From a virus (Duplodnaviria; Heunggongvirae; Uroviricota; Caudoviricetes), in the IMG/VR virus record IMGVR_UViG_2534682108_000003, positions 1 through 33,127 of that record: DNA of 33,127 nt; one strand, written 5' to 3'. Below the pieces are notes generated by a model. The model was not told where the DNA came from and searched no databases. It worked only from the letters and a program-made list of their open reading frames with translations. The translations under genes were made by a program, and so were the position numbers. Positions 2,060 to 3,249 of the stretch are shown here, one piece after another (the stretch's first letter is position 1; every line of letters starts with the position of its first letter).

Positions 2060-3249
2060 TTAACCTAGTTGTTTAACGTGCCAGAAAATCTTTTCTGCGT
2101 ATAGCTCATAAGCTTCTTTCTGCTCATCAAGCCAGTCGTGTTTGTTATACACGGCCATCACTCCAGTAAGTTCGTGCCCCAGCATCTTCTCAGTCACATG
2201 CGGCGCGACCCCCTCCCCCGACAAATTTGTCACCAGTGAACGCCTAAAATCATGGGTCGTCCAGTGCGGTATATCAATTTCCTGTTTTAAATTTCGGATG
2301 TACAAATTAGCGGTGCTTGCGTCAAGAGGCCGATCGAGGAACTTGCCAGGGAACAGAACGTCATTCCCAGCATTCAGCAATCGCTCAACGAACGGCTCCA
2401 TTTGCTTGAAGATGGGTCGGCGGATAAGGTTCCCCATCTTCGAGTGCTCCTCTGGTGTTGTCCAGATCATGTCGTCCATATTGAACTCTGCCGGAGTCGC
2501 TAAACGCATTTCAGAAATGCGCGGCCCCCAGAGCAGCGTCATTTGGTGCAGTACGCGATTAGAGGTAACGAGCCTGGAATCCTCCATCGCTTTCCAAATC
2601 TTAGCCAGTTCTGTCCATGTCAGCACCCGTTTTCCCACATCTGGCTTTTTACCAATCGTCTTCACGCTGAGCTTTAATAGCTCACATGATGGAACCAGTT
2701 GGCGGCTGATGCACCAGTTAATCACCGATCTGAGCTGAAGCATCAGGACGCGAACTTTTTTGATATTTTTCTTTTCCTGCCGGGTAAAGAATTGCACCCA
2801 GTTCGACACTGGAATGTGCGCTACAGGCATATCCTCAAATTCTGTGTACATGGTGTTGTACACAACCGATTTATAGAGGATCTGAGTATTTGGCTTTAGT
2901 GTAGTGGCGTAGTTATCCCACACCACTGGTCAAGGCACTCTTTAAGAGTCAGTTCACCACCAGCTCGGGTAAAATAATTTTTTGGTGGGATACCCTTGGT
3001 GTACAATTCGCGCATCTCACCGACTATCACCCTCGCATCTTTAAGTGTGACAGCAGGATAACGGCCTACGGTCAAACGGACCGGCTTACCATTCCAGCGA
3101 TATCGGTATTGAAATGTAATCGTTCCGCCTGGTGTTATGCGTACACTCAGCCCATCACCATCTGTCAGCTCAGGCGCTCCAGAGTAGGGCTTACCATGTA
3201 TGCTTCGTAGCTTTGTATCGCTGAGTGCCATCTTATAACCTGTACACAA
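2060..3249 (-). pseudogene. P4-family tyrosine integrase, split by a frameshift near 2896-2928
   Basis: N-terminal arm-binding fragment (track ORF 2896..3249: GDGLSVRITPGGTITFQYRYRWNGKPVRL...) and catalytic C-terminal fragment (2060..2926: ...HDFRRS...LGHELTGVMAVYNKH...) are in different frames; the C-fragment frame has a TGA immediately upstream of its first GTG, so one polypeptide cannot be made without a frame change. Confidence 0.6.

Follow-up and report, generated by a model that had tools for sequence, protein, structure and literature searches.

The split integrase gene at the left end of the window (the whole stretch of 33,127 nucleotides that was analysed) is very probably the int gene of a temperate myovirus-type prophage that occupies the 5′ end of the tRNA gene argW, and that has been inactivated in one E. 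coli lineage by a 2-bp tandem duplication. Contig NJLL01000044.1 of NCBI assembly GCA_002466935.1 is covered almost completely by the window. The element had been read from the sequence alone as the remnant of an immobilised island. In the relatives, the equivalent elements are prophages of about 43 kb that lie between yfdC and argW with int at one end, and the element is a prophage in decay rather than an island. The features discussed below are collected in Table 1.

Table 1. Positions of the split integrase gene, its attachment site and neighbouring features in the window, with the sequences of the compared argW and prophage ends
Feature	Position	Strand	Basis or detail
int pseudogene	2060..3231	minus	1172 nt; tyrosine recombinase of the argW-5′-end-targeting phage group; intact orthologues of 1167-1170 nt in the same place
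int N-terminal fragment, 111 aa	2896..3231	minus	PF13356, E 6.7e-19; alignment to intact Int
int C-terminal fragment, 288 aa from GTG	2060..2926	minus	PF00589, E 4.3e-18
2-bp tandem duplication, codon 104	2919..2920		CA on the plus strand, TG on the gene strand; alignment; placeable anywhere in 2917-2921
Three CTGTAC(A/T)CAATG copies, candidate arm-type Int sites (P′ arm)	3240..3286	plus	between int start and core
Promoter-like site for int, TTGCCA-18-CAGAAT	3261..3290	minus	consensus scan only; overlaps the arm-type repeats
Promoter-like element toward argW, TTGCTG-18-TAACAT	3355..3384	plus	weak against consensus, below scan threshold
att core, argW nt 1-23	3424..3446	plus	5′ acceptor strand, D-stem and D-loop; second copy by yfdC in H1 and H2
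argW, tRNA-Arg(CCU), regenerated at its 5′ end by the prophage	3424..3498	plus	tRNA calls
K-12 argW start			GTCCTCTTAGTTAAATGGATATAACG
H2 yfdC-proximal prophage end			GTCCTCTTAGTTAAATGGAcATAGTG; order: native argW upstream region, stub, phage DNA
H1 yfdC-proximal prophage end			GTCCTCTTAGTTAAATGGATATAGTG
int-proximal end			GTCCcCTTAGTTAAATGGATATAACG; order: phage DNA, core, rest of argW
Excisionase-like HTH gene, 61 aa, same prophage	114..299	plus	HTH_17, E 2.8e-4; phrog_66, E 1.2e-6; H1 coordinates
Three accessory ORFs between int and the xis-like gene	320..1976	minus	gene calls
Accessory ORF, 290 aa	1104..1976	minus	NCBIfam LAPAL, 1.2e-53; LAPAL-motif/DUF7946; PADLOC PDC-S42, E 2.7e-34
Accessory ORF, 82 aa	828..1076	minus	gene call
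Accessory ORF, 171 aa	320..835	minus	gene call

Reading frames and the 2-bp duplication

The gene is divided between two minus-strand ORFs that lie in different frames and overlap by 31 nt, one of 117 aa with a TTG start (2896..3249) and one of 288 aa with a GTG start (2060..2926). The first matches the Pfam domain Arm-DNA-bind_3 with 68.3 bits (E 6.7e-19; cut-off 27), and the second matches Phage_integrase (PF00589) with 66.1 bits (E 4.3e-18; cut-off 27.1), a domain that scores 65.1 bits in an intact orthologue. Both ORFs and both domains are as the sequence-only reading had described them, an arm-binding and a catalytic fragment recognisable in different frames. Based on homology with the annotated intact orthologues, the real start of int is the ATG at 3231 and not the TTG at 3249. 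The N-terminal fragment consists of native residues 1-103 followed by eight out-of-frame residues, CGITTPLH, and a TAA stop codon; the N-domains of CP4-like integrases in the PDB (3jtz and 3ju0) match it with an E-value of 1.6e-8. The C-terminal fragment comprises native residues 104-389, which form the SAM-like core-binding domain and the catalytic domain. The SAM-like domain (PF14659) spans residues 95-139 of intact Int, and the frameshift at codon 104 lies in the domain boundary region, nine residues inside it. The catalytic residues R237 (GPRISE), H326 and R329 (HDFRRS), H352 (LGHE) and Y361 (VYNK) are all in the C-terminal fragment and align with those of IntS and P4 Int, while the catalytic Lys is K264 by alignment alone and is less certain than the others. 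A single uninterrupted frame for all integrase domains is absent here, where they are shared between ORFs of 111 and 288 aa. The frame of the C-terminal fragment has a TGA at 2932-2930, which had been placed directly before the first possible start; the TGA is present, but one codon (CCA) intervenes before the GTG at 2926-2924. The sequence before this GTG has no Shine-Dalgarno motif at a workable distance.

The switch of frame had been assigned to a G/T-rich stretch at 2896-2928, and alignment to three intact orthologues, from the relatives H1 to H3, locates one indel in that stretch, in the gene-strand context CCAGTGGTG[TG]GGAT. Intact genes read CCAGTG-GTGGGAT against CCAGTGGTGTGGGAT in the window, and the stretch without the extra TG, which is of the intact type, reads CCAGTGGTGGGAT. 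When 2919-2920 are deleted, an ORF of 389 aa results that is identical to WP_195686549.1, the Int of H1 (E. coli O157:H16 Res13-Lact-PEA12-26, NZ_CP062876), which is the closest complete genome. The difference that restores one frame is 2 bp and gives 389 aa; it had been anticipated as a single base and about 400 aa, and a single-base indel is ruled out by the alignments. Positions 1-3499 of the window and NZ_CP062876 differ by no substitutions and by two slippage-type indels, the 2-bp indel at 2919-2920 and a 5-bp indel in a TTTTC repeat at 558-562. At the latter position the window copy is full-length relative to phrog_15878 and the NZ_CP062876 copy is frameshifted, and each of the two lineages has broken a different gene by slippage with no substitution between them. 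The int gene is held by six of 5426 complete E. coli genomes, and is uninterrupted, with 1167-1170 nt, in the three relatives inspected in detail (H1 to H3). In a further relative, H6 (NZ_CP025842, positions 2244-4022 of locus L010), an IS1 borders a truncated copy and a large stretch next to it is deleted; in Z1833 (NZ_CP062705), the match to a Stx2a-type copy ends at nt 897, and the annotation there names an arm-binding-domain protein.

Attachment at the 5′ end of argW

Based on the comparison of prophage ends, argW is assigned as the attachment site of the prophage that carries the split int. In H1 and H2, the att core is duplicated at the two prophage ends, as a stub with T at position 5 on the yfdC side and as a version with C at position 5 in the regenerated gene. 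The same comparison places strand exchange 3′ of argW position 5; the sequence upstream of the regenerated argW and at least nucleotides 1-5 of the gene itself come from the phage. In the window this position (3428) is the phage-type C, while K-12 has T, which changes a U5-G wobble in the acceptor stem to a C5-G pair; the window argW with C5 is still called tRNA-Arg(CCU). A C at position 5 is also found in H2, H3 and the Klebsiella phage, and is absent from the Stx2a phages. An att of 24 bp has been stated for argW prophages (bioRxiv 2024.03.06.583675). The regenerated argW is immediately upstream of int, with the two genes diverging, in every relative examined, because the core is argW nt 1-23. 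The earlier view that the integrase has no tRNA gene on its own side and that its attachment site is unclear does not hold, since argW is that site and its first 23 nucleotides are repeated at the far end. An island without an attachment site is likewise ruled out by the second copy of argW nt 1-23 beside yfdC in the relatives. A search of the flanks for a direct repeat marking the ends of the element, which had been proposed, recovers both copies in H1 and H2, but the window holds the int-proximal copy only and no second copy of the core, because the contig ends in an IS66 that interrupts the prophage, 275 nt past the left edge.

Between int and argW, the motif CTGTAC(A/T)CAATG has only three matches in the window, all in one block, and none of 100 shuffles gave three or more. 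Relatives as distant as the Stx2a phage and the Klebsiella phage have the block with hardly any change, and further copies of the heptamer TGTAC(A/C/T)C are present on the distal arm. The repeats (CTGTACWCAATG) and the distal heptamers are therefore best described as putative arm-type Int sites. The promoter-like site for int overlaps the repeats, which fits the autoregulation that Panis et al. (2010) predict for divergent int-tRNA pairs (PMC2951348). In that survey, the divergent class and the class with int before the tRNA gene in the same orientation together make up less than 8% of 1273 pairs (PMC2951348). A strict sigma-70 scan of the plus strand between int and argW gave no promoter match. 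The TTG and TAnnAT positions of the weak element at 3355-3384 are invariant across five diverged relatives, and from this element, brought in by the phage, argW may be transcribed in place of its displaced native promoter.

The 3′ end of argW is also occupied. A 3′ core of the KplE1 type, CTGCAGGGGACACCAT, is present at window 3484-3499, and the same core has been described for IntS at the argW 3′ end (PMC2951348). The tRNA gene is shared by two prophages, the one with the split int using nt 1-23 and a second, myovirus-type prophage with an IntS-like integrase using the 3′ core. With both of its ends in use, argW is thus made up of a host-derived middle between two phage-derived ends. The O157:H7 strain TR01 has the same IntS-argW-Int sandwich as the window. 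The second prophage has adjacent genes for tRNA-Thr(UGU) and tRNA-Asn(GUU) at 31875-32030 on the minus strand, close to the lysis and late region; they are presumably phage-borne.

The prophage and related integrases

The relatives share a lambdoid early region (a LexA-type repressor, Cro, a helicase, NinG and Q), packaging and head genes (terminase, portal, head protease and major capsid protein) and a contractile tail with sheath, tube and baseplate genes. In H1 the prophage is interrupted by IS66 (ISCro1) and IS3 insertions, which the prophage of the window is taken to share, and its tail-fibre gene is truncated. Past the left edge of the window, the source contig continues for 275 nt that are identical to the IS66 of H1, with the same junction, and the IS66 insertion predates the int frameshift because this junction is shared with H1. 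At the right, positions 33055-33127 are an IS3-family end. The source contig is thus bounded by repeats, IS66/ISCro1 on the left and an IS3-family element on the right, and the rest of the left prophage is off the contig; the state of the source prophage beyond the contig is judged by analogy with H1 alone.

The element still carries cargo, as had been stated, in the form of three intact accessory ORFs between int and the xis-like gene, whose phrog_66 match is annotated as ‘excisionase and transcriptional regulator’. The accessory ORFs match phrog_3243, phrog_15510 and phrog_15878. PDC-S42, matched by the largest of them, is a candidate defence gene in PADLOC; the two small ORFs match nothing in PADLOC or in Pfam, and no known defence system. 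H2 and H3 hold different genes between int and the xis-like gene, and the slot behaves as a variable cargo position.

Among the closest known systems are the Stx2a phages Stx2a_F451, PA2, PA8, PA28, phage 86 and VT2phi_272, whose Int is 77% identical over 389 aa and for which argW has been reported as the integration site (Yin et al. 2015, PMC4587872). They share with the window the att core (argW nt 1-24), the divergent int and argW and the arm-repeat block, and the provirus record of Stx2a_F451 opens with the reverse complement of argW nt 1-24. They are short-tailed, whereas the prophage of the window is of the myovirus type with lambdoid early genes; they have T at tRNA position 5, whereas the att copy of the window has C and its int is frameshifted. 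The Stx2a-type integrase adjoins argW in 210 of 5426 E. coli genomes. In the laboratory lysogen WG5::PA8, int is immediately upstream of argW and dsdC directly downstream of it, which means that integration yields this arrangement. Klebsiella and E. coli phages whose Int is 78-79% identical have the same arrangement of int and tRNA-Arg; the Int of Klebsiella phage 1 LV-2017, beside tRNA-Arg(CCU), is 79% identical. [quoted passage not shown] The host genus differs, and arg2A is presumably equivalent to argW.

The label P4-type suits the domain architecture of the split integrase, but little else. P4 Int has the same arrangement of Arm-DNA-bind_3, SAM-like core-binding and catalytic domains, with weak full-length similarity: the two are 22% identical, and the NCBIfam P4-like model NF007246 (PRK09692) gives 63.2 bits against a cut-off of 434, which together rule out a close P4 relationship. 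Elements of the P4 family recombine at the 3′ end of a tRNA gene that precedes int and has the same orientation, whereas the split int has a 5′-end site and is divergent. argW is also the tRNA gene used by the integrase IntS of KplE1/CPS-53 and by its homologue at 3624-4817 of the window; IntS has an Arm-DNA-bind_3 N-terminus as well, but is only 20% identical to the split integrase and lies on the other side of argW in the same orientation as the tRNA. The IntS-like integrase of the window is 35% identical to P4 Int and is the closer P4 relative of the two. Cross-complementation of the split integrase by this neighbour seems unlikely, because it has such low identity and uses the core CTGCAGGGGACACCAT.

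Origin and consequence of the mutation

Intact Int would be a heterobivalent tyrosine recombinase of the lambda style, in which the N-terminal domain would bind the arm-type repeats, while the core-binding and catalytic domains would act on argW nt 1-23. Integration moves the native promoter of argW, together with a 5′ stub, to a site beside yfdC that is about 43 kb away; what then precedes argW comes from the phage, as do its first nucleotides, with T replaced by C at position 5, and int ends up just upstream of argW and divergent from it. The duplication separates the arm-binding domain cleanly from the rest of the enzyme. The arm piece stops after eight wrong residues, and the catalytic piece is left with a GTG start and no convincing ribosome-binding site. 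With no single polypeptide to bridge arm and core sites, excision and re-integration would be expected to fail and the prophage would be fixed in place. For lambda-type integrases, bridging of arm and core sites depends on a single polypeptide that has both domains, and a fragment of lambda Int that lacks the arm-binding domain keeps core cleavage activity. It is possible that a catalytic fragment is started at GTG 2926. The most likely consequence, inferred from the loss of full-length Int, is that the prophage is locked in place and does not excise.

Whether the duplication is real had been left between genuine decay and a sequencing or assembly indel. An exact-sequence look-up finds the 111-aa and 288-aa products on three contigs and the otherwise identical intact allele on 20. 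One of the three is an independent Logan assembly, of run SRR29225726, which differs from window 93-11360 by two SNPs (4541 and 6277) with no gaps and diverges beyond 11360. Since the split is found in two closely related assemblies, it counts as one mutational event. Because the same split is present in an independently sequenced isolate, it is concluded that the frameshift in all likelihood arose recently as a mutation, is inherited within one lineage and does not stem from assembly, in agreement with the first of the two options. An insertion introduced during sequencing or assembly, with the gene intact in the organism, is very unlikely. The absence of substitutions together with two indels in 3.5 kb relative to NZ_CP062876 is a pattern that can reflect assembly indel errors, but the identical insertion recurs in the SRR29225726 isolate with its own SNPs and different flank, and at the 5-bp indel it is the window copy that is full-length relative to phrog_15878 and the reference copy that is broken. 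Furthermore, the change duplicates a dinucleotide and does not alter the length of a homopolymer; dinucleotide duplications are not typical of homopolymer errors.

A real duplication could still leave a working enzyme, if ribosomal frameshifting gave full-length Int or if the fragments cooperated in trans. Both fragments are otherwise undamaged, the break is at a domain boundary and the ORFs overlap by 31 nt, features that speak for such a scheme. Yet CAG TGG TGT GGG contains no slippery heptamer, correction would require a shift of +1 or -2, GTG 2926 lacks the Shine-Dalgarno motif that separate translation would call for, and bridging of arm and core sites requires both domains in one chain, as is established for lambda Int. 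The 90% protein cluster of the integrase has 81 members, from E. coli, Kluyvera and Citrobacter among those listed, and all of the listed members except two fragments are single proteins of 388-389 aa. Function retained by the split gene is the least probable of the alternatives, with hardly any chance of being correct. The N-terminal fragment by itself is a somewhat better candidate for a role, since its ORF retains the native start and the whole arm-binding domain, the promoter-like site for int overlaps the arm repeats, and autoregulation is predicted for divergent int-tRNA pairs (Panis et al., PMC2951348). The free fragment might be kept as useful by repressing the int promoter and blocking excision, or by hindering incoming phages with the same att. 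However, the mutation is so recent, with no substitutions relative to the intact allele, that no signature of selection can exist, and the split allele is in the minority (three contigs against 20). Loss of int by other routes, through the truncation beside IS1 in H6 and the cut-off match in Z1833, fits neutral decay. A retained, useful arm-binding fragment is accordingly improbable, and there is an equally slender chance for the broader proposal, in which a free arm-binding domain from an autoregulated int promoter would hold the prophage or exclude related phages while the rewiring of argW by the phage promoter and 5′ nucleotides becomes permanently fixed. Inactivation of int by the duplication remains the preferred reading.

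The split gene is an ordinary, recent pseudogene of a known integrase group, and its recombination at the 5′ end of argW is unusual but already described. Its significance is mainly for annotation: int becomes a prophage integrase pseudogene, and the element becomes a prophage at the 5′ end of argW. When an integrase gene lies upstream of a tRNA gene and diverges from it, the absence of an attachment site should not be assumed. In the window, unrelated integrases occupy the two ends of one tRNA gene, an arrangement with published precedents in Klebsiella that can also be seen in O157:H7 genomes. The group to which the split integrase belongs targets the D-arm end of the tRNA gene, which on integration receives its upstream region from the incoming element.
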